DNA from: Bispira polyomma
Taxonomy: Eukaryota
DNA: 64,000 nt
Assembly: GCA_965649765.1 (NCBI GenBank)
Contig: OZ287751.1
Coordinates: 77,190,001 to 77,254,000, forward strand
Reading direction: 5' to 3'
Below, one piece after another: positions 3,101-64,000 of the stretch; within the stretch, counting starts at the first letter, position 1; each line of letters opens with the position of its first letter. Position numbers and translations under genes: made by a program. The notes beneath the pieces were generated by a model. That model had not been told where the DNA came from. It saw only the letters and a program-made list of their open reading frames with translations, and did no database searches.

Positions 3101-4960
3101 ATTAAGCGTCCCTTGAAAAGGGCGCTTATTTGGTTTCACCCCTGGTTTCCTCACCGCCGCCGCCGCCTTTAATATTTCCTTCAATATTATCTGCATCAAA
3201 ATTATTTTTGGCAGTTCTCTTAACCAGGAGTGGGAAATTTTTTTCATATTCTTGGCTTTGAACTTTGGCCTACTTAAATGTCAGGTGACCCTGGGGATGT
3301 AAAAGTGCTTGTCACTAGGTTTTCTCAGAAAGTATTCATCATAGCTCAATGAAATTTGGTATGTACCTTGGTAAGGCAATTTTCAGGACGGGAGACGTTG
3401 ATGAGATTAATCGGATGATAATTGACCGATTGCCAACCGATTGATTTTTATTGAAATGCGAAAAATCGGTACTTTTTGCTATCTCGGAAACTATTGGGAT
3501 TTCGGCTTTTTCTTGGTATAAGTTATTCATTTACTTTTTGATTTCATGTATGATGTAAAAATCTCACAGTTCTAAGTCCAGTACTCAATGAGTACTGAGT
3601 ACTTCAAATGAGTAGTTTGCTCTATTTTGCTCTATCTTGCACTTTTATCAACTTTTCTTTTGAAGTACTTGTCATAGTTCAATGAAATTTAGCATGCACA
3701 TTGCAAATACCAAAGCATAGATGTCCGTAAATTTTTAGATCAATCTGGTGATAATTGACTGATTGACAGGGTCGATCAATAATACAAAATAGGGAAAAAA
3801 ATGTGTTGATGGGTGCTTTTTTGAGCGTGTGAGGATTTTTATTTTTAATTTCAGACCAGTACATGCAGCGCGTAACTTTTGAAGAATAGCCTGAATTTTT
3901 ATTTAATTTTTACTCCATCCAAAAATATGCGATCGTTACTGATATAAAACGATTTCAATTTCAAAAATTTTAAAAATTAAGGTCTTTTTTTTAAACGTTC
4001 ATTATCTCGGAAACGGCGCTAGATAGAGCGATTTCGAGCTCATTTTCGACCTACATGGTTGACTTTGTTTATATGTAAACTTTCAAAAAATTTTCAATTT
4101 TGGCGATCATCTTGAATTTCTGCGTCTTTTTCGAAAATGTCCGTTATCTCGGAAACGTTGCTACATAGAGCGATTTTGAGCTCATTTTTGACCCAAAGGG
4201 TTGATTTTGCTTACATGTAAACTTTCAAAAGGTTTTCAATTTTGGCGGCCATCTTGAATTTCTTCGTTTTTTTTTCGAAAATGTCCATTATCTCGGAAAC
4301 GGTGCTCGATAGAGCGATTTCGAGCTCATTTTCGACCCACAGGGTTGCTCATATGTAAACTTTTGTAAAAAATGTTCGATTTTGGCGGCCATCTTGAATT
4401 TCTGGGAATTTTACGAAAATGTCTGTTATCTCGGAAACGGTGCTAGATAGAGTGATTTCGAGCTCATTTTCAACTCACAGGGTTGATTTTGCTTATATGT
4501 TATACTTTTGAAAAAATATTCGATTTTGGCGGCCATCTTGAATTTCTGAAAATTTTACGAAAATGTCCGTTATCTCGGAAACAGTGCTAGATAGAGCGAT
4601 TTCGAGATCATTTTCGACCCACAGGGAAATTTTTCGAATATGTCCTTTATTTCGGAAACGGTGATAGATAGAGCAATTTCAAGCTGATTTTCGACCCATA
4701 GGGCTTTTTTCATTTATATATAAACTTTGAAGTAATTTTTAATTTGGGCAACCACCTTTAATTTCTGCGTCTTTTTAGAAAATGTCTTATCTCAGAAATG
4801 GTGCTACATAGAGCGATTTCGAGCTTATATTCGACCAAAAGTGCTGATTCTGCTTATATGTCAACTTTTGTACAATATCAAACCATGTTCACTGAACAAT
4901 TTCATTATTATTTCAACTTTAGGGACGCTTCATTTTTGGTATCAAAAAACGTTTTTTAGT
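3101..4960 (+). mobile_element. Helentron-associated interspersed element (HINE/DINE-like), apparently complete
   Basis: 5' subTIR aagcgtccct (3104-3113) with adjacent inverted copy agggcgctt, then a (CCG)n microsatellite and an internal tandem array. 3' subTIR agggacgctt (4921-4930) is followed by a short hairpin and a T-rich end. Confidence 0.8.
4001..4870 (+). repeat. Tandem array of ~142-bp units (~7 copies) inside the HINE
   Basis: 'ttatctcggaaacggtgctagatagagcgatttcgagctcattttcgacc' recurs at ~4001, 4143, 4287, 4426, 4569, 4647 (short unit) and 4786. Confidence 0.92.
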
Positions 4961-23400: not shown

Positions 23401-24923
23401 AACCATTCGTTTAGCCAGGTCAATTGCTTTAAAAGCCTAACAAATAATTTTCAACATAAGCGACTGTGTCTGATAGTCACCTGATAGTATAAATCTGAAT
23501 CCTCTCAGTTTGGATGGGTCAATTGCTTCCAACCAATCTATGAATGCCTTACATATTATTTTTACGATGGTGGCACCCTTTTCAATGGCGGTTTACTTTT
23601 TAGCTTAGGCTACCCACATCAGTAACTTCTCTCTTCTGCAAGTGCTTTTTTTGGTAACAAAACTTTTCTGACTTTTTGGACTATGACTTTTTGGACGATC
23701 ATCGCCTTAGGAGAAAATATAATCAACTTGGCCATTGATAAACCTTTCTATAATAATCATAAAAGCAGAGCCACATGTCAGTCTATGTATGTCTTGTCAA
23801 CTATTATTACAATATGTTCCTGTGCTTACTACTTGTAAACATGTGGTGGAAGAGCAATACAAGACTGTTATTTTAAGGCAGTGGTACATTATTGTTAAAT
23901 TCTTGTGAATTTCCCAAAAATTATGGTATCAGTAGTTTTTTCTTTGTATCATTGTGTGTCCACTTCATTTAGTGACGGGATTGCAAAATTCATGTAGATG
24001 ATTTATATGGCAGTCAGTCACAGTTAAATGTTTAAATCATTATTAAAGTATCAAAATAATGATTACATAACAAGTTTCAAAACTTTGAATACACACATAT
24101 TTGTTTATGTTTAAGGTTTACTCAAAATATTACATATTTTCCTACAACTGGTTAGGATCTGAATGATATATGCCATTCCATTTGCGTATATAATTCAACA
24201 GCAATGCCTGATAATCTCTGTGAGTGGCACATCCCATATGCTTAGACTGACACTGAACTTTGGTTCAGTTACTTTATGCAACCCAAACACCAGGATAATC
24301 ATCTTACAATGTGTCAATTACACAAGACACAGAACAGTCTGGTTTCTGCAACAGTCCTGGAATCTATCATCCTGGTGTAGCCCTACTCCCCCCCCCCCCC
24401 CCCCCCCACACACACAGACATTTCCTTTCCCCTGATTAAGGTGACATTAAATCAGCTTGAGGTCACCTTAGATATTACAATTTGCGGCCTCATTATCAGG
24501 ATAAAAAGGTGATTTATTGTCATTTGGTTGGTTATAAGGAGGTAGAGAATAACAGTTTTTACAGAAGGGTTGTTGATATTGATTGATGGACAGGAAGAAA
24601 AGATTTACCGCAGATACAATATTGCTCTACATGGGTTTGTATTGTAAGGTCAAACAGCATGATATTAAACTCCTGTTTTTTTTTTTTGTTTTTTTGTTTT
24701 GTTTTTTTTTGGGGGGGAGGGGGGGGGGGAGCAATGAACATTTCTCAAAAACATTAATGCAATTAAATAAATGTGGGGAATACCTTATTAAGTGTATTGT
24801 TATATTAGGTGTTAAGTGTCAAAATATAGAGAAGAGTGATTACACAAGATAGTAAACCAGGAGGGTTTCAGACAAAATTAGAAAATTAGAGATTCTTTTG
24901 TTCTTTCTGGAACTAAAAATGAT

Positions 24924-26043
24924 GTTCATCCTCTTTCTGATCCTCCTGAAATTGCTGCCTGTACCGGAATCTCTGTAGATGCTGTTAATAAAATAATTAG
25001 CAACTCGCCTACAAAATCCTGCATGTTGGATCCATGGCCAACATCTCTTATCAAAGAATGTAGTGATATACTACTCCCATCCATTACAAAGCTTGTAAAC
25101 TGCTCACTTATTGAGGGACATGTACCTGATGGTTTTAAAACAGCTGTGGTTACTCCTCTTATTAAGATGGCTTCTCTTCCGGTGGATGACCTAAACAACT
25201 ATCGCCCTGTATCTGGTCTTAGTTTAATATCAAAACTGGTGGAACGTGTGGTTGATAAGCAACTGTTAGATCATATCCTTGTCCATGACTTAGATAACCC
25301 ATACAATTCTGCATATAAAACAGGTCATTCGACTGAGACAGCTCTTCTGTACATAAAAAATGAAGCTCGACCTCTCTGCTGCCTTTGACACCATTGATCA
25401 TTCCACGCTTCTCAGTTGTCTTCAGACTTGGTTTGGAGTTTGGGGCTCTCTTCTTAAATGGTTCACTTCCTACTTAAATGATCGTTATCAGTCTATAAAA
25501 ATTGGTTCTACTTTGTCCGATCTTTGTAAACTCTTGGTTGGTGTTCCCCAAGGTTCTGTTTTGGGTCCTCTGTTGTTTTCGTACACTGTCCCTCTCAGAT
25601 TTATGACTGGCAAATATAAAGGCATTAAGTTTCATTTTTAGTATTTTGCCCCATATCTTTCCTCTTACAGTAGTTTTTATAATACCAGGCGCAGTCAGAG
25701 TGGTAGTAATTTCCTTGTAGTTCCAAAATTCCACCCATCTACTCTAAAGTCAGTTAAACAGTTTGGTCACAGCTTTGCTTTTGATGCTCCCATTGTTTAG
25801 AATGCTCTTCCTGATGTGATTTGTGTGTCCCCCTCACTGGCCTCTTTTAGAAGCAGCTTGAAACCCACTTGTACACCAAAGCATACCCACCTTAGTCCCA
25901 ATCAGTCCCCCAGCGTGCTTTGTGGTGCTCGACACTTTTTGTCCCTGGATATTGAAATTGGATTTTGTGCTGTTGCGCCTTAGAGTCCCCTTCGTTAAGG
26001 GAAGATTAAGTGCTATAAAAGTCAAATTACAGTTACAATTACA
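24924..26043 (+). mobile_element. L2-clade LINE, 5'-truncated and internally deleted
   Basis: RT motifs LDPWPTSLIKEC, NYRPVS, LDLSAAFDTIDH, GVPQGSVLGP. Jumps to the 3' region at ~25640. 3' end 'gcgccttagag...aagtgctataaaagtc' plus a short repeat tail. Confidence 0.92.
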
Positions 26044-40118: not shown

Positions 40119-41250
40119 TTACTTCACTGGACAAACTCGTATAAAACCAGGAAGTATACAACTAAACAGACTACTTAACTTGTGATAAGTAGTGCTGTCC
40201 TGCCAAAATTAATAAGGTCACTTCACTGAATAATTCCTTATGTCCAAAAAAATTCAACGAAACAGACCTCTCGAAAAATGAAAGACAAATTGTAGTAAAA
40301 CGAAGAAGAAAAATACTTCACTGATAAATGTCTTGGCACCAGTAAGTAGTTAATAAGCAACTGCCTTAAGTACCAGATAAGTGACGCTGTACCTTAAGGT
40401 AACCGAAAAATACTTCACTGAATAATTTCTTAAGAACCAGTAAGTATTCAACTAACAGCCTACTTAACATCATATAAGTAGAACCTGCTCTTTAAGTTAG
40501 AAAAGAATAACGTCACTGGACAGTTTTATTGACCAGTAATTATTCAACCAGCAAACCACTTCACTTCATGTAAATGGTGCTGTGTTTCAAGGATAAAGAA
40601 AATTACTTCAACTGGACAATTACTGACAACACAGTAAGTATTTAACCAACAGCCTACTCAAAACCATGTAAGTAGTGCTGCCTCTTAAAGATAAAGAGAA
40701 TTATTTCACTGGACAGTTTTGTAAACCAGTAAGAATTCAACCAACAGCTCACTTTACTCCATGTAAATGGTGCTGTTTTTGAAAGATAAAGAAAAGTACT
40801 TCACTGAACAGTTACTTATGTGCCAGTAAGTATACAACCAACAGCCCACTTTACTCCATGTAAATGGTACTGTTTTTCAAGGATAAATAAAGGTACTTCA
40901 CTGAACAGTTGCTTATGTGCCAGTAAGTATACACCATCAGCCACTTCACTCCATGTAAATGGTGCTGTTTTTCAAGGATAAGGAAAGGTACTTCACTAAA
41001 CAGTTACTTATGTGCTAGCAGTATTTAATCAGCATCCCTTTTCACTAATGTAAATGGTGCTGCATTTCAAGGATAAAGAAATATACTACACTGAATAGTT
41101 ACTTATGTGTTAGTAAGTATTAAACTAGCAGCCTACTTCACTCCATGTAAATAATGATGTGTTTCAAGGATAAAGTGGCTTAACTAGACATCTCTTATGA
41201 ACCAGCAAGTATTCATCCAACCGTCTACTGAAAGACATGGTAATTAGAGC
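40119..41250. repeat. Tandem array of ~96-bp double-hairpin units (~12 copies) inside the DIRS-like element
   Basis: 'acttcactg'-like unit starts at ~40121, 40220, 40315, 40412, 40510, 40605, 40703, 40798, 40895, 40990, 41085 and 41178. Confidence 0.9.
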
Positions 41251-44200
41251 ATGTCTCAATACAAGTACTAAAAGTACTAAACATGTAGAGCATGAAAAAA
41301 ACCTGATCAATAAGCAATCCATTACCCACTTAATAGATAAGGTACTGTACTCTAGTTGTCATGTAAAAAAATAGTCATCCAGACGGCATCATCTCTCCAA
41401 CTAAAAACTCTTCACCTTTATACCTCACAAAAAGAGGACAGACAAATGAGAGAAACAAAACAGCTCATCAGCATATGACTGTATGTTTGAAGATATAATG
41501 ATCCCTGTGAACTCTGTCAGATCTATCTGAATAATATGGTCCAGGTCTGGCAGGACACCAAAAAATAACTCCAGCAAATGAAGCATCCAGAACCGTTTAA
41601 TGCCCCTATGTTAAGATTATAGACTTGTATGATTATCGACATTCAATTTAAATCAAAATGCATCTCCTCGAGATATTGTGAAATTGATTCCAAAGAATTC
41701 ATTCATTTTGGATTCCCACATATAAAATACTGCATTCCTTGAACTAAACATGACCCCTTATTAAGGACATGAAAGAATTCAGTTGTGATCTGAACTACAA
41801 CCTACTTGTATACTGTTCAATCACACAAAATCCTGTTTTAAAAAGAAGTGACAGTCCAGAAATTTGATTTAATATGTGACATCAATTTCTGAACTTTTAT
41901 TAGCAACAGCCAGTCCATGGACATAAAAAATATAATCCAATTTGTGGGCGACTTCACATTCGGATGAATCACAAAAAAAAATACATGAAAATCGGCGCCA
42001 ATCACCACCCATGTAGGCTGTAGATTACAATCTTCTGAGTAATTCAGTACTTGTATCTTGTAAAAACATTCTGAATCTGAATTGACAAGTCTAAATCTGG
42101 GAGTCGGAATATATGATTTAGAACTTTTCCCAAGAATTTGATGATTAAAAAATGAAGATTAAATAAATCTCTGCAACTCCAAATTCATTAGGATATGAAA
42201 GTCGGCCCTTACGCCACCCATGCACCTAAGTGTGAATACTAATCCGGTTATCTCATTGTTCAAATAAATATCTGTAAGACATACTAAGAGCTTCTAGCGT
42301 TCACAATGAACTATAAGCAAATAATATATCACCCAAACGCTGTGGAGGCTTTTATCAAGCACACAGCTTTGAGTTTGTTGAGACATCACTGTTGAAACAT
42401 CACTGTAAGAGCATCACAGTTGGGACATCAGTGTTGCGACATCACTGGAATTCAAGCAAAAATCTGTATAAACAGGACCCATGTATGCTGTCCTATGACT
42501 TCTCAGCTACAGCAGATGTATTTCCTCCAATCTGTACATCTCAAGCATTCTCACTCTGCACAGTGGTAGTAGCACCCGACACATTTCCCGACTTAACTTT
42601 AGGAAGTCGATCCAAAATGGTGGTGACTTAATCTTAGCATCACTCTGTTTGGACACTGCTACAAACTCGCTAATGTTGTGGAGGCTTTTAACAAGCACAC
42701 AGACGAGTTTTTAAGATGACCCTCTGTGCTGTTCCAAAAATCGTCAAAAACGACAATGGACGCAAAAGATCGCAAACGAATATGTAAGGTCTGTTAAACT
42801 CCCAAAACGCTGCATCAGTTGCATTTTATTGCAGAAACCAAAGTTCCTCAGTCTTAATACTTGCTGACTTATAAATAAGTCATCTTGTCTTGAAAACTTC
42901 ACAGCAGTAGATTGAACTAGGTGTTGACACAATGGCGACCAAAATAATTGTGAAGGGTATCTCGAGGACGAGAGTTGAAGGGACTTCCGGCACATGCGCA
43001 GTGAGGTTGGTGAGAATAATTTAAGTCAAATCACAAGAATAGTCTTAGAAAAAAAGACTTATGTGATTTTTATGGTCGAATATTTAGGTGAACCAAATAA
43101 AAGCATTAGTGAGGATAAGGTATAGACTATTTATCGCAATAAAAAAACACCTCATCCCCTTTCAAACGGCCAGTTCTAAACATAAACAAACCTGCTCAAG
43201 AAACACATTTATGTTTGCCTATTGTTAGTAATAAAACACACTGGAACTAGGAGGAAAACCAATTTAAAAAAATAAGAGATGTTTAATAGAGACTCTCAAG
43301 GACAGAAAGGACTCTATTTGTGCTGGTAGCAACACAAACCCCATTAATGGAGGAAGTCTGTTTTCCCTTTTTGCTGTTTTAAAGAATTGAATTATTCTGC
43401 AGTTTACCACTCACTTTCATTCCAAACCCAAATTATCTCCTCTCCCAGTATAATGCTCACACGCAGATTAGCGTGTTGTAAGATTCTCTAGATAGGTACT
43501 CCATAAACAAATTGATTGTATTCTTCATTGTCCTATTTGTCTTCAATGGCCAAGGAACAATGCAATATTTTTGGAGCAGTCTGCTAATCTTAGAAGATTA
43601 TAAACTTTTTATAATGCATTGAAACTAAAATCTGTAAAGGTTTTAAGTAGAGACACTAAATCTACTGGGTTAAATTATATCACCCAAACAATATCTCAAC
43701 AACTATTGCTGCTAAGTGTGTTGTATACAGTTACATTCCTGCTAACCATTATAATTGGCGTTTGAGGGTGTCTTAGGTTTACCAAGATACCAAGTGGAAA
43801 AAGATGCAGATTTTATAGGTAATATGACCACAAGCTTGTCTATGATTTTGCTACCTGATTTAGTAGTTAATGTGCTTGCGCGACATTTAACACAAGAAAG
43901 TTTCAGAAAATTCAATTTAGAAACATGTAAAACAAAATCTTGAAATTGGCGAGTTAGAAATAGATGACAAAACAGAGTATTAAAGTTAATTGCTAAATTT
44001 TACCTTTGATCCCACTGGTCTGAGTAGCTAAGCTGTTCTCTCTTTAAAATCCATTAGATTTGCCATTTCAACTATTAAAATCTGCCACCCTTTTATGTGA
44101 TAGACACAGATCAAACAAGTGAGATCGTGGACTTTGTGACCTTCCAAGATAGATTTTAAAATAAATAAGAGAGCCCTCTCATTGATTGTGGAATTGACTA

Positions 44201-44979: not shown

Positions 44980-45560
44980 AGAAATGTTACAGAAACAGGG
45001 TTCAGTACATACAATAACTACTGCAATACAGGGTTCAGTGGGTAAGTGGACAGAATAGTTACTGAAACAGGGTTAAGTTACACATAATAAATATTGCACT
45101 ACAGGGTTTCGTGCACACAGTATCTACTGAAGCAGGTTTGAGCCGACAAAAAGGCTACTGAAACTGGCTTAAGCAGACAGAATAGTCACTGAAATAACAT
45201 TAAGTAGACATAATACCTAGTGATACTGGCTTAAGCAGACAGAATACCTACTGAAACTGGTTTAAGTAGACCTAATAGCTACTGAAACAGGCTTAAGCAG
45301 ACAGAATAACTATTGAAACTAACTTACGCAGACAGAATAACTACTGAAACTGGCTTAAGCAGACAGAATAACTACTGAAACTGGTTTAAGCAGACAGAAT
45401 AACTACTGAAACAGGCTTAAGCACACAAAATAACTTATAAAACTGGCTTAAGTAGTCAGAATAGCTATGCAAACTTGCTTAAGTAGACAGAATAGCTACT
45501 GAAACTGGCCTAAAAAGACAGAAAATCTACTGTAACAGGCTTAAGGAGACATAATAGCTA
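44980..45560. repeat. ~32-bp minisatellite (actgaaactggcttaagcagacagaataact); paralog at 52955-53610
   Basis: Directly visible tandem units in both duplication copies. Confidence 0.9.
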
Positions 45561-48337: not shown

Positions 48338-48665
48338 AACTAGTACTTGAGTAACCAATGGAAGTACTCAAGTAACTAATGCCAGTACTTGAGTAACCAA
48401 TGATACTACTAGTGCTTGAGTAACCAATGCTAGTACTTAAGTAACTAATGCCAGTACTTGAGTAACCAATGATACCACTAGTGCTTGAGTAACCAATGCT
48501 AGTACTTAAGTAACTAATCCCAGTATTTGAGTAGCCAATGATACTACTAGTGCTTGAGTAACCGATGCTAGTACTTAAGTAACTAATGCCAGTATTTGAG
48601 TAACCAATGATACTACTAGTGCTTGAGTAACCGATGTTAGTACTTAAATAACTAATGTCAGTAGT
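48338..48665. repeat. ~21/28-bp satellite (agtacttgagtaaccaatgct); expanded paralog at 58460-59712 and 63517-63755
   Basis: Directly visible tandem units. Confidence 0.92.
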
Positions 48666-50152: not shown

Positions 50153-53100
50153 TACATAATTAAGGAATACATATCAGCAACTGAAGCAAGTATTGTTATG
50201 GCATGTAGCTTTAATGAAAAAAACGATCTGAAATGCCAAATCTAAGGTTCCAAATGTTGTTTTGACAAGCAATAAAATATTAGTGAAGCCTTTCCTGAAA
50301 GTGTTAACACATTAAAATCATACTTGCTAACATCAGTTTCAGGTAATTGTCTATGGAACTCATAGGGTGGCATGCTGAGATATAGATTGTGTCATCCTTA
50401 AATACTTGGAATAGGATAATTAGTCACCATTGTAGTCTTAGTAATCTTCTAGTCTTTAGTAAACTTTACATTTAATTATCATCATACATGATTTACACAA
50501 TGGTAGCACAGCAATAAAGAACATTATAGTAGTTATGGGTTGTCATTTACACACTAGTTGTTCAAGAAATGCAATCTAAAAATAAAACACAAAAAAACCA
50601 TTACTGTATCAAGAAGAATAAAAGCAATATCTACATTAAATTCACACTGCAGTGCAAGTTCACTTACATCCATAAATAGGTGTACAATCTAATAAGAAAT
50701 TATTGCACACAATCCCTTGTTCTTTAAGGGTGTTGTTTACAAGGATGGATAGTGTAACTAGACTGGCCGTGAGCTAATCTTTTGAACATTACTTGTTTTC
50801 TACAATTGCTGCAATACCTATTTATATTGTGCCCATTTTACAGGATGTTCCTAAATGTTCTATCATAGTGGTAATGCTATTTTCCCTCAACCAGGTCTAT
50901 CATATGTGTTATGCAAATGTTGACGTCAATACCTTTATCATTTTTTAGGATTCTAAAAATAGGATCTAGACTAGTTGAGAGGTGTTTTTGTATAAAATTT
51001 GTTGAGACACAAGGACTGACGTGAATCTACTTTTAGGATTCTTTGGAGCATCATTTTTTTCTATCAATCTGACGCAAACAGGAAAATTACAGCCAAGTAC
51101 GAAAAAATAAGTGATTATTTTGGAAAAATGTCGCAGGATAGCAAAAAAAAATGCAACTCTGTGAATTGCACTGTCAATTAGGGTAAGAAAAAATTAAACA
51201 TAAGAGAAGGCAGTGTTTATTAAGGTGATAGTGGAAATGTTGAAGTATTTAAGCACATGTTGTGTTCTATGAAGGTTAAGTTGACCATTCATAGTGCCAA
51301 GGACTTGCCCAAAAATATTCCATGTCTTTGCTTGGATGTTGGGCTAATATGATTCATGTTATGTTGCTAAGAAACATATACAACAGCCTATAAAATTACT
51401 TCAATCTACTATTATTATCAGCAAAATTGACTATTAATGTAGCATGCCAATTATGGGTACATAGTTGTTTCAGTTATTTTCTAAAATAAATATTAAAATA
51501 GAAATATGGCATAATTGTTCCTGTCCTGTCTTTTGAAGACTCATCAGTGCTTTTTTCCAAGGGTCGACAAAGGCCATTTCTTTACAACGGCCAAATAGTT
51601 TTCAGTTTTTCACCAAGAGGGCCTTTCTGTGTACTTCAAAATTGCCTGCTTAGAAAATAATTTGGGTGTTTCTTTAAGATAGCTATTGTATGCTGATGAG
51701 TTATTGTATGCTATTGTGTATGAAAGTTCAATCGTTAAATCGTAAAATATATACTTTGGTCATTGGGTCCTCTTCCCTGAAACATGCACATAGGTAAATG
51801 GTGATCCTCAAACCTCTGTCTTCAGGTAGATGTATAGGACAGTTGCTGGTGATGGACGGCTACACTTGGTCATTAAAGAGAAGGTAATTGAGTGGTGAGA
51901 ATATAGATCAGCCTAGATTCTGTGTTGAGTATAAATATGAATATGAATGGCAGAAAGTACACAACTCATTCTATGTATTTTGTTTCATTATATATTATCA
52001 CCCATATACATGCATCACTCATTCCTTTTAAACATCAAATGAACACCTCATCCCCTCTCAAAAGGCCAGTTCTACACATAAACAAACCTGCTCAACTGAA
52101 GAAACACATTTATGTTTGTCCATTGTTAGTCATAAAATACACTGTAACTGGGAGGAAAACCAATTTAGAAAAATAGGGGATGTTCAACAGAGACTCACAA
52201 GGACAGAAAGGGCTATTTTTGTGCTGGTAGCAACACAGACCCCGTTATTACTGGAGGATGTCTGTTTTTCCTTTGTGCTGTTTTAAAGAATTGAATTATC
52301 CTGCAGTTTATCACTCATTTTTATCCCAACCCAAATTATCTCCTCTCACACACAGATTGGCATTTTGTAAGATTCTCTGAATAGGTATAGCATGTGACAA
52401 ATTGATTGTATTTTTTATTGTCCTATTTTGTCTACTTTTACAAACATAAGCTACACGACATGTTTCTAGAATGTTAGCGGTTGCAAATGGAACAGATTTC
52501 TGACATAACCAAGAAATTATTTATGTAAAATTTGTTGTAAAAATGGTTGACTGGCCAGGGAAGAATTCAATATTTTTGGGGGACAGTCTGCTAATTCTGT
52601 TGTGGCATTTAAGACAAAATTTGTGTTTTCTGGAGTGGAAAGAATATATAATTCATGAAACTAAAACTTAAGGCTGCATCTGTCTGTTTGGGTATTGTTT
52701 TATTGTAAATCCATGTGCTCTCAGTGTTTTTGGTTTATTTTGAGTACAATGTACATGCTATCACAGTGAAAGTATTATCCATATTCCCAAAGCAACAGCA
52801 CATTTAGGCAATAATGGATGCGATACTAGTAACGACATGGCTAGGTCTAGTTAACCAACAGAAAACCCAATAACCTATGTAAATACCATTGTCATGACTT
52901 TAGTGCTGTAATTATCTGCAGACAGAATTGAATTTGGAAGTAGAGAAGAGAGCATAGCTGCTAAAATAGGCTTACCTAGACAGAATAGTTACTAAAAATA
53001 GTTACACAGAATGACTACTGAAATACAGGGTTAGGTACACAAAATAGCCACTGAAACTGGCTTAAGTAGACAGATTAGCTACTAAACTGGCTTGAGCAGA

Positions 53101-53679
53101 CAAAATAACTACTGAAACTGTCTTGAGCAGACAGAATTGCTACTGAAAATTGGTTTAAGCAGACAAAATTGCAATGTAAATACCATTGTCATGATATTGG
53201 CACTGTAATTATCTGCGGAAACAATTTGGAAGTAGAAAAGAGGGCATAGCTGCTGAAATAGGATTAACTAGACATAATATCTACTAAAGAACAGGTTTCA
53301 GTACACAGATTAGACACTGAAACTGGGGGAAGGAGACAGAACAGTTAGTGAAACAGGATTAAGTCACAGAATAGCAATTCAGGGTAAACAGAGTATCTAC
53401 AGAAGCAGGTCATAATAGCTACTGAAAAACAGGTTTAAGTGCACAGATTAGACATTCAAACCGGGTTAAGTAAACATAATAGCCACTGAAAAGCAGGCGT
53501 AAGCAGACAAAATAACTACTGAAACTGGCTTAAGCAGCCAGGATAGCGACAGACACTGATTTAAGCAAACAGAATAGCTACTGGAACTACCTTGAGCAGA
53601 GCGAATAGCTATCACTTTTAAATTCAAATGGACGTAGTGGCTTAAAACAATTGTGACACATTATCTACCTTCATCAGTA

Positions 53680-56806: not shown

Positions 56807-58604
56807 TATGCAACAACACATGTGGTTTAAAAATGGTGGTTTAGTAATCTACAGATAAATGTGGAACTACTTGTGATTTGTTATAATATGAAGTTATACA
56901 CAATGTTAGAGACTTCATAATAAGCATTTTGAGATACATATCGTACTAAAGTGACAAAAAATACCTTCTCCTTCATAAGATAATATGAGTGCCTTCAATA
57001 TTATGTTTTTGAATATTTCACCTGGTTTAATTAGTGCTGCCTGTCTTTGTGGCAAGGGAGCTCTTCCCACTGTGACTTAACAGGGAGATCCATTATGTTT
57101 TAAAGCTACCATTCTAGTCATCTATTTACATGTTTATGGGATTGTCAAATAACAACTTTAATCAGAAGAATGGCAGAATGAATTTCTTTCTAGTTTACAG
57201 CTAACAGGTTCTAGAGTTTGACTTTTTATGATCTCATATAGAAAAAAAAATATTTTTCCACACTACTTGAGTATCATTTACATGTCTCGTGGGTTTTTAT
57301 TGGAAACGAGATGTGTCATGTGGTCTTGGGATTGTGTGGGGAGCACACAGGAAACCAGGATCAGTTTAATGGACTGGCCATACACTTCAAGGTCAAACTG
57401 GGGCCATAAAAAGACAGTTTGTTCTGTCTTTTATGTCATATTGCCACAAGTTCTGGTTGGGTTTACAGAAAAATTGCTAAGATATCTCTAACGTTTGTTA
57501 TTCCAAAGTTATTGGAAAGACATGTACCCTATAGATCCATTCTAGGAGACATTGGTGGGTGGATTTTTTTATCCATAAGGATGCTGACAGTGCGTCTATT
57601 AAGGATATTGTGTTCTTATTTTTGACACTGCTTACAACAAGGCATGAATTGCCCATCATTGCAATGATGGTAAAATTTATACGGGCATTGACATCACATG
57701 TGCTAAGTCACTCAGCAGTTTAGTTATAACTATATCATTCACTTCTTACTCATATTAATCAATACCTTATAAAACATTCTGTTCTGTTTGAATTTGTATA
57801 AAATGGGTATAAAAATTAAGACACACCCAAGAGAAATATGACGTTTTCATGCAAGAGTGTTTGAGTAGAACATTTATTACACAGAAGTGATTTGCTAACA
57901 GATACTTGAAACCTCTTTAAGTCACCACTTAGTCTTTGCTTAAGGACTACGTACTTGTACTGAGTTTCTGAATAAATAGTATTCTAAGTAAATATAGAAT
58001 ATCTGCAATATCTGCAACAGCATAATAAATTATTTTAATATGACATGGCAGTGTTGGTGATTCTGTTTGGGCGAAAGCCTCTGTAAAAATAACCATATAT
58101 AGACAGACGGAAATAGTCTAATATTGTCTGCTGTGTATTGGTGTCCAGTGGATATAGTTTCCTCAAGAACATAGTTTTTCCAGTAAAAACATCTTGAATT
58201 AGATAATAATGTTAATTTTGTCTTGCTAGAATAGGAAAAACACATTCCATAGCCTGATATAAGGTAATTTTTTTCACGATTGGAGGCATAGTAACACTTC
58301 GGCGAACTTTGGAATTTGTTATTTCTTAAACATAGGTTAATTCTAGCACAAATTAATAACCAGTATTACCCTTGTTTTAAGACTATAAATTCTATCAGTT
58401 CACAGCTGTAGCTTTATAGAGATTTATCCAGGACAGATTCAGATTTCCATCAGGGTATATTAGTACTTGAGTAACCAACGCCAATACTTGAGTAACTAAT
58501 GCTGGCAATTAAGTAACTAATGCCAGTACTTGAGTAACCAATGCCATTACTTGAGTAACTAATGCAAGTAATTAAGTAACTGATGCCAGTACTTGAGTAA
58601 GTAG

Positions 58605-58852
58605 TTTGAATTTGAATTTGGATATTTAACGTCCACTCTAGTACCTGTTTAGGTTATATTTGGACAGGTAGTTGGAAACGCTGGAGGAAACACTGCATAC
58701 AGTTGATCAAGGTTCTGCACTGAAACCAGCGGCCCACAGTAAGGAACTACCACCTTCCCACATAGGCATCTACAGAATTCTAACTCACGCCGCCCAGAGG
58801 TGAGAGACCAGTGATTGTTAAGCGCAATGCTTGCTAACCACTAGGCCACCGC
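58605..58852 (-). mobile_element. tRNA-derived SINE, family A (copy 6), inside the satellite
   Basis: Reverse copy lacking a few 5' bases. No clear TSD. Confidence 0.9.
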
Positions 58853-59712
58853 ACATGTCAGTACCAGAGTATGTAATGCTAGTACTTAGGTAACTAATGC
58901 TAGTACTAGTACTTAAGTAACTAATGTCAGTACTTAAGTAACTAATGCTAGTAATTAAGTAGCTAATGCTAATACTTGAGTAACCAATGCTAGTACTAGA
59001 ACTTAAATAACCGATGATAGTACTTTGGTAAATAATGCCAGTACTTGAGTAACTAATGCCAGTACTTGAGTAACTAATGCTAGTACTAATACTTGAGTAA
59101 ATAATGCCAGTACTAAAGTAACCAATGCTAGTACTAGTACTTGAGTAACCAACGCTAGTACTAGTACTTAAGTAACCAATGATAGTATTTGAGTAACTAA
59201 TGCTAGTACTCAACTAACTAACCCAGTACTTGAGTAACTAATGCCAGTACTTCAGTAACTAATGCTAGTACTTGAGTAACTGATGCCAGTACTAATACTT
59301 GAGTAACTATTGGTAGTACTACTACTTGAGTAACTGATGCTAGTACTGGTACTTCAGTAACTAGTGCTAGTAATTACATAACCAATGCTAGTACTAGTAC
59401 TGCAGTAACCAATTCCAGTACTAAATTAACTAATGCCAGTACCTGAGTAACCAATGCTGGTACTAGTATTTGCGTAATTAATGCTAGTACTTAAGTAACT
59501 TATGCCAGTACTTGAGTAATCTAGTATTAGTACTTGAATAATTAATGGTAGTACTAGTACTTGAGTAATTAATGGTAGTACTAGTAATTGAGTAACTGAG
59601 GCTAGTACAAATACTAGTACTTGAGTAACTAAGGCTAATGCTTAGGTAACTAAGGCTAGTACCTAATCTATTCTAATCTAGTCATACTTTTATAAGTAAC
59701 TAAGGCTAGTAC

Positions 59713-62700
59713 CTAATGTAATCTAATCTAGTCGTACTTTTATAGCGCTTAATCTTTGTACAACAAATTCTAAGGCGCAGCAAACCCAAAACATTAATCG
59801 AAAATCAAAAAATAGTGGGCGGATGGAAGTTGTAACCAGGACGGCTACCGTAAATGGTTGCGACGGCTAAGGTGGAAAAGCCTGTTCAAAAAGGTAGGCC
59901 TTCAGTTTACTCCTGAAAGAGGAGAAAGTTTGAGCCAGGCAAACATGATCAGGTAGGCTGTTCCAAATGAGAGGGCCATCATGAGCTAGGCAGTGATTGA
60001 ACTGAACTTTGCATTTGTGGATGCAAGGTTCGAAAGTGGGAATGTTAAGGTATAATTTATCAGGGTTACTGCGCCTTGTCCTGACTGAGCATGTATATTT
60101 GGATATATGGGGGCTAAAATAAGTGGGTAATCCAGAATTTAAAAATTTATATATTATTGTTGCTGTTTTGAAAGCAACACAATATTTTATTGGGAGCCAG
60201 TGCAGTGACTTGAGTACAGGAGTAATGTGGGAAAATTTAGAAGTTTTGGTCACAATACGTGCCAATGAGTGTTGGATATTCTGAAGGCGTCTGAGATCAC
60301 TACGAGATGAGGAACAGAACAGAGAGTTGCAGTAATCAAGTCTGCTGCTGACCAAAGCATTGGCAACAGTAATTGCAGTGGATTTGAAAAGATAGCGTCA
60401 AATCCGCCTGAAATCACGGAGGCCAACAAAACATGATCTACACACCGATGCGACATGGTTAGAGAAGGAGAATTCGGAGTCGAACACCACACCCAGATTG
60501 CTTACTTTGTCAGCTGGAAAAAACCTGCTGCCAAGAATGTCAAGTGGAAAACATCTGGACAATTTTTCCCGTTTCGACTTGGAGCCAAACAAAATAAACT
60601 CAGTCTTCTCAGTGTTCAGCTTGAGTTTATTTGCTGCCATCCAGTGTTGTACATCAACAAGGCAGTTCTGTAAGGAAGTGAAAGCTGCCTGGGCAGAGTC
60701 AGGTGTAAGGTGGATGTACAGTTGGGTATCATCAGCATAGAAGTGAAAGTTTATGTTTTTGTATGCAGCAATAATCTTGCTGAGTGGAGTGGTGTACATG
60801 GAAAACAAAATGGGACTCGGGACAGAACCTTGGGGAACACCAAATTTTAATCATGTTGGGTCGGATAAGATATTGCCAATTTTGACCGTTTGGAATTTAT
60901 CAGACAAATATGCCATGAACCACTCAAGTGCCATACCGCTGATACCAAACCAAGACGATAGGCACTCAAGAAGAACTTTGTGATCAATAGTATCAAAGGC
61001 TGCTGACAGATCCAGCAGTACTAAGGCAGTAGGCATACTTTTGGATAAAGATGTATGAACATCATTTTTGATGCAGAGTAGTGCAGTCTCAGTAGAATGA
61101 CCACTTTTGTACGCTGACTGATACTTATTGGACAAATTGCTGACATCAACATGTTGTTTGATCTGTAAGGCAACCGCGCGTTCTACCAACTTAGAGATAT
61201 AGCAAAGGGCAGGACGGTAATTTTTAAGTCAGCCTTTGGAAGAGAAGGTTTTTTTATTAAAGGAGTGACAATGGCCTTTTTAAAATTATTTGGAAAGACG
61301 CCATTTACCAACGAGAGGTTGATAAGTTTTGTGATTGAGGGCAATAAAATGTCAATACATTCCTTAACAAGGAATGTGGGCCACGGATCTAACAAGCAAG
61401 ATTTTACGGGTGATGCTAGTATGATGACTTCATCAACAGTTACTGTGGAGAAACAGTTGAAGACGGTTGGTGGAGCTGTTGGTAAAGGGGCATTTGGGGC
61501 AGCTAATGTAAAACCGTCACAGATTCTGGTAATTTTATCAGTGAAAAAAGTACTAAAAATGTTTGCCAGTGATTTGCTATTGCTATTTTCGGGTAGTATA
61601 GTCTGTTTTTTTGCGGTGAAGGGTGCTGTTTAGTTTTTGCCAAAGTTTCTTCGGGTCACCCTCACTTTGTGAGATCATGTTGGCATAGTAGGCACGTTTT
61701 GAGTCCTTTTTTGTGTTGTTGCACCGGGTGATCCATTGGCGTAGTCTCGATCTATTTGGAGTAGTTTTGTTTTGGCGCCATGTTCGTTCAGCTTGTCTGC
61801 GCAGTATCTTCATTTCACGATAATTACTGGTGATCCACTCAGGTGCAGGCTTCTTCAATATCTTTGATTTACATGGCGCATGGCGTTCTATAAGAGACTG
61901 CAGGTCAGCGCAGTACTGTGTGTATAGGTCAGCAGCATTATCAGCAGGAGACTTGACGAAGGCCGTATCTGCCAACTCTTGTCTAAGGTCAGACATAATG
62001 ATTTTTTGAAATTGCCGAAAAGTGATTTGTGTGACATCAAAAGATGGCGGAGAGGGAGCATCAATTTCAGAGGATATTAAAAAATTATCACTGATGCAAC
62101 GAATGTTTTTTATGTTTCTGATACTATTGAAATCAGTTGGAGTTAGCAGGCAGTCTAGTGCATGCCCATGAATATGGGTAGGGAAGTTTATGTGTTGGAT
62201 GAGATTGCAAGATTCCAGAACTGTGGAAAATCGATTACTATTTCCAGATGCAGTGTCTATGTGGATATTAAAATCCCCACAGAATACAGTAGGAGAGGGT
62301 TAAGAGCAAGTAAACCCAACAAAAGACATGAATTCTTCGAAAAATGTATAAGATTTGAGCCAGGAGGCAGAGACAAGGATGAGTTCAAAAGATGTAAAAT
62401 TTGGTGTAGCAACTAATTGACATTCATAGTTTTTCTTAATAAAAAATCCCACCCCTGCCCACCCTGTTTACCTACACGAGGGGTATGGAATAGCTGAAAG
62501 TCAGCTGGGGTTCAGAGAGGAATGATGGAGTATCAGAACTCCTAATGTGTGTTTCTGTGATGCCGAAAATATCTATGGAGGATGAGTCGATCAAATTAGC
62601 TATGACAGGGCCTATGAGCGGGCATTTCCAAATCCAAACTAGATTGGGCCAGGGTTTCTCGCGATATCACCTGCCAGTAGGATTGTAATAAGTTTAAATG

Positions 62701-63516: not shown

Positions 63517-64000
63517 AATACTAATATACCTAATATACCTGATTAACTAAGGCTAGTGCATATACTAGTACTTGAGTAAGTAAGGCTAATACATATACTA
63601 GTACTTGAGTAAGTAAGGCTAATACATATACTAGTACTTGAGTAACTAAGGCTAGTGCTTGAGTAACTAAGGCTAGTACCTGATTAACTAAGGCTGGTAC
63701 ATATACTACTACTAGAGTTAGTAAGGCTAGTACATGTACTAGTACTTCAGCTAGTGCTAATTAATGTCAGCTCTTAATGGACAATAGATGTGTAATTTTA
63801 GGTTTAATAAAACCTCCCCTCATTTCTTGTAGCACAGAGACTAGTACTGCAATGAGCTTGTAATCTAGGTGATCTCACCTCCCAAGTGAGACTTTAAGTG
63901 AAAGAAAACCCTTACCATTGACTGAGGATGGATTGTTTTCACAGCATGTGTTGTACAAGAACTGAATACATAGACTTGCTATGGAAAAAAGTTAAATATC

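Follow-up and report, generated by a model that had tools for sequence, protein, structure and literature searches.

A retained array of double hairpins in a non-autonomous DIRS1-like retrotransposon of Bispira polyomma: a candidate structured RNA module

A double hairpin repeated in tandem in the 3′ part of a DIRS1-like retrotransposon of Bispira polyomma is a retained module, and its stems are constrained only in the transposing lineage. The copy described here lies on the minus strand of a stretch of 64,000 nucleotides (contig OZ287751.1, positions 77,190,001 to 77,254,000; called the window below and numbered from its first letter) in a genome of 1.04 Gb and 75 contigs. The initial annotation had proposed an array of about 12 double-hairpin units in a DIRS-like element with the minus strand as sense. 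We have now confirmed the array, with every quoted motif found where it had been placed. The array is real, and its interpretation as an RNA module is moderately supported by the sequence comparisons. Compensatory change, which had been the main argument for selected pairing, did not exceed a tree-aware null (double-sided changes, P 0.09-0.25). Selection on pairing is supported instead by a deficit of inherited pair-breaking changes that is graded according to the sense strand.

The element and its coding relatives

The window copy (39346..43144, minus strand) is 3.8 kb long, with an end common to other copies. Undeleted copies measure 5.2-5.6 kb, and two internal deletions were found in the window copy relative to the copy L061. 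The left (5′) ITR at 42939..43144 and the right (3′) ITR at 39346..39577, which includes a 3′ extension (both on the minus strand), match over 184 nt at 97%. The ICR (39626..39730, minus strand) is complementary to both element ends, its first part to the 5′ tip (44 nt, 95%) and the other to the 3′ extension (76 nt, 89%). Since this combination of ITRs, 3′ extension and doubly complementary ICR is the plan described for DIRS-1 (PMC7192593), the minus strand is the sense strand. Relics of coding sequence agree with this orientation and with the DIRS-like context. A tblastn search with intact DIRS proteins of the same genome against 17 natural copies gave 25 weak HSPs, without exception in sense orientation and in the order gag-RT-YR; 20 of them were to YR (best E 3e-5), three to RT (E 0.003) and two to gag (E 0.02). 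The YR matches did not include the window copy, in which the YR relic (41500..41592, minus strand) was read directly from the motif CPARP at 41557, matching CPVRA/CPVRS of intact DIRS YR. C-terminal YR relics downstream of this motif were not detectable. In the coding copy L102 the YR stop follows CPVRS after 133 codons, which projects to about 41160 in the window, and the start of the array roughly coincides with the expected end of the YR frame.

None of the copies of this element that were examined retains an intact frame for RT or YR. The window copy has no ORF longer than 106 aa, the longest ORF in 16 full-length copies has 178 aa, and Pfam gave no match for a 204-aa ORF in the copy L046 or for read-through frames of the middle of the window element. 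Sense-strand relics in the order gag-RT-YR with no long frame left thus define a decayed DIRS, and the element is a high-copy, gene-dead, non-autonomous member of this known class. In first-look DNA searches of the genome, the array yielded 961 candidates and the 3′ region 876; these figures are not copy numbers. A divergent copy, L145, was considered as a new family and rejected, as it is an old single copy. In the 5′ part, a 14-bp minisatellite (42376..42447, strand not assigned) has a very variable copy number between copies. Both ITRs carry GCGCATGCGC adjoining CCGGAAGT (39516-39534 and 42985-43002), which we take to be NRF1- and ETS-like motifs; the pair is likely to form a promoter pointing inwards from each end. 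ARAGORN detected no tRNA in the window, and reverse transcriptase fragments (RVT_1) were found outside the DIRS copy at 24882-25388 (plus strand), 33104-34169 (minus) and 60398-60850 (minus).

A young coding family (L101-L130) with RT, RNase H and YR, whose YR pieces are 98-99% identical, has ICR-matched tips about 95% like those of the non-autonomous element, and an ITR body about 70-75% like it. A coding family with the same cis ends, as expected for mobilisation in trans, is therefore present in the genome and is the likely helper judging from its termini. DIRS RT was described to act in trans and the ICR to be essential, and the same source gives the primer as not determined (PMC7192593). 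The array was not found in the helper. Neither BLAST nor TRF gave a signal in this family (29 other 3′ ends), comparison of the array with the YR end and 3′ UTR of the autonomous family revealed no DNA homology (score 36, null maximum 50), and a covariance-model search of autonomous DIRS 3′ regions, as recommended in the initial annotation, gave no match in the five searched. As the autonomous partner moves without the array, the array is not a core DIRS requirement and the proteins of this family do not need it. Coding DIRS with related ends are nested within non-autonomous copies, in L051/L040 and, in the case of the young coding family itself, once within the array (L054:2308-6755). The helper 3′ UTR contains two similar GATCTTC...GATC hairpins 43 nt apart (L102:2487-2551).

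The window element has a different motif in common with two families of autonomous DIRS. AUGACGG...CC(A/U)GA, set in a helix, occurs at 39962..40014 (minus strand) in the window and in the autonomous 3′ UTRs at L102:2378-2444 and L055:4143-4215, with differing helix sequences. Its core is presumably a tandem G-A, SECIS-core- or K-turn-like. The autonomous lineages fold with z-scores of −4.6 and −3.4, and the window copy with −0.6, which is not above shuffles. Acceptor-like (about 40054) and GTAAG donor-like sites (39831-39836, minus strand) flank the motif in the window, at distances similar to those in L102 and L055, and of 75 non-autonomous copies 53 have the donor-like AGAGTAAGT without any change. 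The region is possibly a non-coding 3′ exon. The motif may be an ancestral cis signal to which the array was added.

The array and its units

By HMM, the array (40112..41262, minus strand) consists of 12 units of about 96 bp (88-99 bp), each with two related hairpins; TRF reported a period of 95/192 at 40405-41175. The exact hairpin-1 pattern, TACTTCACTG N12-20 CAGTAAGTA, matched the genome 999 times and its reversed control not once. The stretch is covered by contigs of three public runs (all from one study, with the kind of contig unrecorded), which shows presence only; the array is therefore not an assembly artefact. In unit 8, hairpin 1 (40797..40832, minus strand) has 10 pairs, a G bulged on the 3′ strand (or a shifted U-G pair) and a 15-nt loop, and hairpin 2 (40841..40874, minus strand) has 9-12 pairs, a loop of 5-11 nt and a pair that exchanges between U-A and C-G. 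Three U-A pairs of hairpin 1 are kept in 29, 28 and 29 of the 29 unit types and its bulge base in 24. The two hairpins are homologous, their 5′ arms being the best-matching pair of 2850 nine-column windows with ACTTCAC...GTAAGTA as the common core, and the unit is thus probably a dimer of a monomer of about 48 bp.

The array occurs in nearly all copies and in all subfamilies sampled, as the proposal of a module carried by the element had required. Among 19 copies retrieved with the ICR, 18 have units, as do 27 of 29 retrieved with the 3′ region (seven of these loci were in earlier sets); neither sample was chosen with regard to the array. The breakpoints differ among the six array-less or array-poor copies that were examined. 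Unit counts in the 42 arrays having both end units range from 6 to 17 (median 11). The 585 near-complete units sort into position-specific types with an identity of 0.90 within and 0.62 between types; 535 units in the 29 types of three or more members entered the tree analyses, and 50 were dropped. Unit order is shuffled, chimeric units occur, and arm spacing varies by several bases. Unit 2 is degenerate yet retained. The observation that divergence is highest nearest the ICR described one end of an array in which both ends are diverged: mean identity to other units is 0.55-0.61 for units 1-3 and 0.57 for unit 12, against 0.65-0.73 for the middle units. In two of three comparisons between subfamilies, the last 1550 nt, from most of the array to the element end, were fully alignable but the 5′ half only to 27-41%. 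The third comparison was opposite, with 0.89 of the 5′ half and 0.72 of the 3′ part aligning. Other tandem repeats of the element (14, 17, 29 and 104 bp) come and go between subfamilies, but the array does not.

Further repeats were noted in the window and in related loci. A repeat of about 95 bp at L055:4854-5280 is unrelated to the array, and in L059 a long array of about 138 bp (134-140-bp period) replaces the middle of the element. The window contains AGTACT-rich minisatellites of 21/27/48/69 bp (48339-48663, 58462-59744 and 63536-63747), and, in the regions 45155-45560, 53039-53611 and 3993-4703, a 31-bp repeat in three arrays together with a 144-bp satellite (4002-4626).

Constraint on pairing and its strand

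Changes were counted by column-wise parsimony on the tree of the 535 units. Private changes are equally frequent in stems (13.05 per site) and loops (13.1); they are mostly decay after insertion and are neutral for pairing. Inherited changes amount to 4.76 per site in stems and 7.06 at unpaired sites. The stem/unpaired ratio is 0.72 (p 0.0014 when columns are permuted within base) and becomes 0.79 (p 0.029) without edge and indel columns. The earlier statement that loops diverge faster than stems thus applies to inherited changes only. Hairpin 1 is more constrained than hairpin 2 with respect to these changes.

Inherited changes within stems were then graded by their effect on pairing, with unpaired columns of the same base on inherited branches as the expectation. 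In the first set, changes giving a G-U pair on the sense strand reached 60 against 77.3 expected (0.78), those giving a G-U pair on the antisense strand 31 against 56.7 (0.55) and mismatches 44 against 107.2 (0.41). A second set took 275 of the 306 units of 43 further loci and gave, in the same order, 36 against 35.1 (1.03), 14 against 32.1 (0.44) and 20 against 65.5 (0.31). After correction for mutation, sense and antisense wobbles differed with p 0.067 in the first set and p 0.003 in the second, which comes from the same subfamilies, has the deep branches in common with the first and is therefore a repeat with other copies, not an independent test. Such a gradient is expected if pairing in the sense RNA is selected, and it runs opposite to the prediction for hairpins in first-strand cDNA. 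The two overlapping data sets thus agree in purifying selection on pairing with strand-specific tolerance of G-U. Pair 19-35 passed on the sense strand from G-C through G-U to A-U (five and two deep events), and RNAalifold returned a consensus only for the sense strand (−4.65 versus 0.0). The deficit of mismatches persisted when five weaker pairs were added (63/123). The results support selection as the source of the deficit, acting on RNA and on the sense strand, and we consider selection on sense-RNA pairing as such to be probable.

Several observations bound this conclusion. In representatives of the 29 types, 88.4% of the cells pair and nine of 19 pairs show a double change. Both figures exceed plain, non-phylogenetic shuffles (reached in 0/500 and 7/500, respectively), but controls with slid partners gave 4-9 double-changed pairs versus the nine observed. 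Against a null simulated on the tree, covariation was not significant (P 0.085-0.25), with 13 compensated cells versus 6.8 (P 0.11), five compensated pairs versus 3.5 (P 0.25) and 21 arrivals at a new pair versus 15.4 (P 0.085). RNAalifold, recommended as a check by the initial annotation, kept only hairpin 1, with one of seven pairs changed on both sides, and de novo mutual information on the 29 types placed just one of the stem pairs, 59-79, within its 25 highest-ranking column pairs. The T-A/C-G exchange reported for hairpin 2 is real (13 versus 11 of 29 types) and ranks sixth of 4371 column pairs by MI-APC, but it is the sole outstanding pair and involves few branches. The C/A position, presented as a wobble on the minus strand only, is such a wobble in six types but a plus-strand wobble in three.

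The G-U bias is partly mutational. Inherited branches outside the array already favour plus-strand G-to-A over C-to-T (39 versus 21 in the neighbouring 3′ region of 75 copies), which makes the sense-wobble excess weak in the first set; in tree simulation its P was about 0.08-0.10. Tips of the first set also drop to about 0.8 of expectation (sense G-U 0.85, antisense G-U 0.81, mismatch 0.78). The definition of stems from the same alignments favours apparent conservation, an effect which the extended pair set reduces and does not remove. Folding gave no strand preference. Compared with shuffled sequence, the array (40112-41000) has a more stable predicted fold whichever strand is taken (z −4.0 for minus, −4.6 for plus), and single units fold modestly, with a mean z of −1.3 sense and −1.2 antisense and the sense value lower in 15 of 29.

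The same data can be read as a neutral quasi-palindromic minisatellite, in which RT slippage and unequal exchange multiplied a palindromic seed of about 48 bp, with stems that only seem conserved through correction by template switching, conversion between units and the choice of pairs. The element does breed other tandem repeats (14, 17, 29 and 104 bp), the units are shuffled and sometimes chimeric, covariation is not significant, the helper lacks the array, and the stems decay neutrally after insertion. Template switching perfects stems, however, and here 24 of 29 types retain the bulge base, and wobble pairs persist. A neutral satellite also gives no reason why sense G-U pairs are tolerated above antisense ones, the mismatch deficit survives the five additional weaker pairs, and it is the other repeats, not the array, that vary between subfamilies. 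We consider this explanation somewhat unlikely.

Possible function and comparable systems

We tentatively propose that the array serves as a multivalent docking platform in RNA that promotes mobilisation in trans. According to this proposal, a bulged double hairpin was amplified in tandem in the 3′ part of the gene-dead element; the left ITR would drive a sense RNA in which about 20 small bulged stem-loops would fold locally and bind protein at many sites. The bound protein would most likely be the Gag/RT particle of the autonomous DIRS helper, capture by which would raise the chance of the parasite being copied in trans. Capture by the helper particle is favoured because the element must borrow every protein, so that this benefit is the most direct. 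The array may act in packaging or in RT recruitment.

The same signature of selection would be left by binding of a host protein to the sense hairpins, for transport, export or stabilisation of the RNA in the germ line, comparable to Egalitarian on the stem-loops of the Drosophila I factor. Known Egalitarian signals have stems of about 17-20 bp, and the stems of 9-12 bp found here are shorter. Hairpin 1 does resemble them in its 3′-strand bulge and three near-invariant U-A pairs, and the hairpins come in pairs; Egalitarian was reported to require two stem-loops and to recognise bending of the stem together with 3′ bulges and U-A pairs (PMC13186709). An Egalitarian orthologue was not identified in the genome, where the search with PF01612 gave three exon-sized matches, and we regard a host protein as an unlikely basis of the constraint.

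Splicing signals were also considered. An antisense transcript from the right ITR would contain many GUAAGU sites, and sense arms with AUACUUAC, which we take to be identical with the 5′ end of U1, could mask donors, so that the array would work through U1 snRNP. A plus-strand GTAAGT does occur in 289 of the 585 units, against four with one on the sense strand, ATACTTAC occurs in 177 sense units, and in three lineages the 3′ motif lies between acceptor- and donor-like sites. Both ITRs were reported to drive transcription in DIRS-1 (PMC5633606). The GTAAGTAT arm, however, underwent 16 deep changes over eight columns, including its GT, but the opposite arm only two over eight paired columns. As the sites also lie within stems, action through U1 or splice sites appears improbable.

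Still less probable is that the inverted repeats act as DNA, either as hairpins in single-stranded cDNA or as double-stranded binding sites. The cDNA of DIRS was described as single-stranded (PMC7192593), and columns 12, 13 and 17 show no deep change, a conservation beyond the needs of pairing. The first-strand cDNA corresponds to the plus strand, however, so that G-T would be the tolerated wobble there, and the opposite was observed; the arm spacing varies by several bases, unlike that of a dimeric DNA site. A self-cleaving ribozyme array or a small-RNA precursor cluster, the latter one of the functions suggested initially, can practically be dismissed: CUGANGA followed by GAAA occurs in none of the 585 units on either strand, no Rfam match fell in the array up to E 5, and stems of 9-12 bp are too short for Drosha/Dicer. 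The likeness to metazoan retrozymes, which are also tandem structured repeats in non-autonomous animal retroelements, is one of outline, as those are defined by the hammerhead, absent here, and have units of 150-300 bp that are the whole element (PMC7761336). The search against Rfam 15 (snoRNA, miRNA, IRE, SECIS and ribozymes) returned only two chance miRNA matches, both on the ICR (E 1.5 and 4). Pumilio sites (31/585, antisense), box C (5/585) and Sm sites (14/585) are too rare to matter.

The element and its array can be compared with several known systems. The TOC1 element of Chlamydomonas contains internal 76-bp tandem repeats in variable number and has split direct repeats, not ITRs and an ICR; we are aware of no work reporting that hairpins in its repeats are selected. 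It is like the window element in being a non-autonomous YR retroelement with an internal tandem array. TOC1 has been assigned to the DIRS order as a non-autonomous element (PMC9940879). Dictyostelium DIRS-1 and the window element have in common the ITRs, the 3′ extension of the right repeat, the bipartite ICR, the order gag-RT-YR (as relics here) and nesting (PMC7192593, PMC5633606). The latter differs from DIRS-1 in having no intact frame and a 1.1-kb hairpin array between the YR relic and the 3′ region; no such array is mentioned in the accessible accounts of DIRS-1 (PMC7192593, PMC5633606), and none was found in the autonomous family of this genome. The LARDs and TRIMs are likewise large non-coding parasites that are complemented in trans and have conserved RNA structure, but they belong to the LTR/integrase type of plants and have whole-element folds, with no array of one small motif in the available description (PMC7215508). 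Viral packaging signals also place several short structured repeats on one genomic RNA for a proposed multivalent binding of protein, but with 2-8 copies, in autonomous viruses and often with a fixed loop sequence (PMC8206606), whereas in the window element, a parasite, some 20 hairpins differ in their loops and have no counterpart in the helper. Precedents therefore exist for internal tandem repeats and for conserved RNA structure; in the literature searched, mostly without subscription papers, no account of a hairpin array under selection in DIRS was found. A metagenome scan gave 28 single pattern matches, none with an array or a part of the element, which were taken as chance; the best covariance-model score was 28 bits, on L178.

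Hairpins following YR were also observed in elements of another YR type, among which there is an intact young family with a 358-aa YR frame and 3′ regions 97-100% identical. In this family, L089:1890-2270 (plus strand) has, directly after the YR stop, five hairpins with the motif GGYNACC at a spacing of 50-60 nt within an outer closing stem (z −9.2), their stem sequence varying between units. Clusters of this motif follow the YR stop in L081, L083, L090, L093 and L099 too (L099:1810-2060, z −4.65). We call these elements Ngaro-like from the direct repeats in L093 and L099, and L089 by association; a plan with direct repeats was described for Ngaro (PMC8547959). Their hairpin sequence is unrelated to the window array, so that the likeness is one of analogy only, and most of the 17 YR loci screened have no structured 3′ region. 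It is a rather doubtful, speculative generalisation that short-hairpin arrays after YR are an unrecognised RNA module of YR retrotransposons, a signal by which RNA would be chosen for packaging or RT, and that it was built independently here, where it would let the parasite outcompete its helper.

Non-autonomous DIRS elements are barely described in the literature. If the array were a neutral satellite after all, it would show that a retroelement can acquire conserved stems and a G-U bias in the absence of significant covariation. As a unit of 96 nt with a signature tied to the transposing phase, the double hairpin is a small and testable candidate for a cis signal, and also a candidate for the means by which a parasite may overcome cis-preference.
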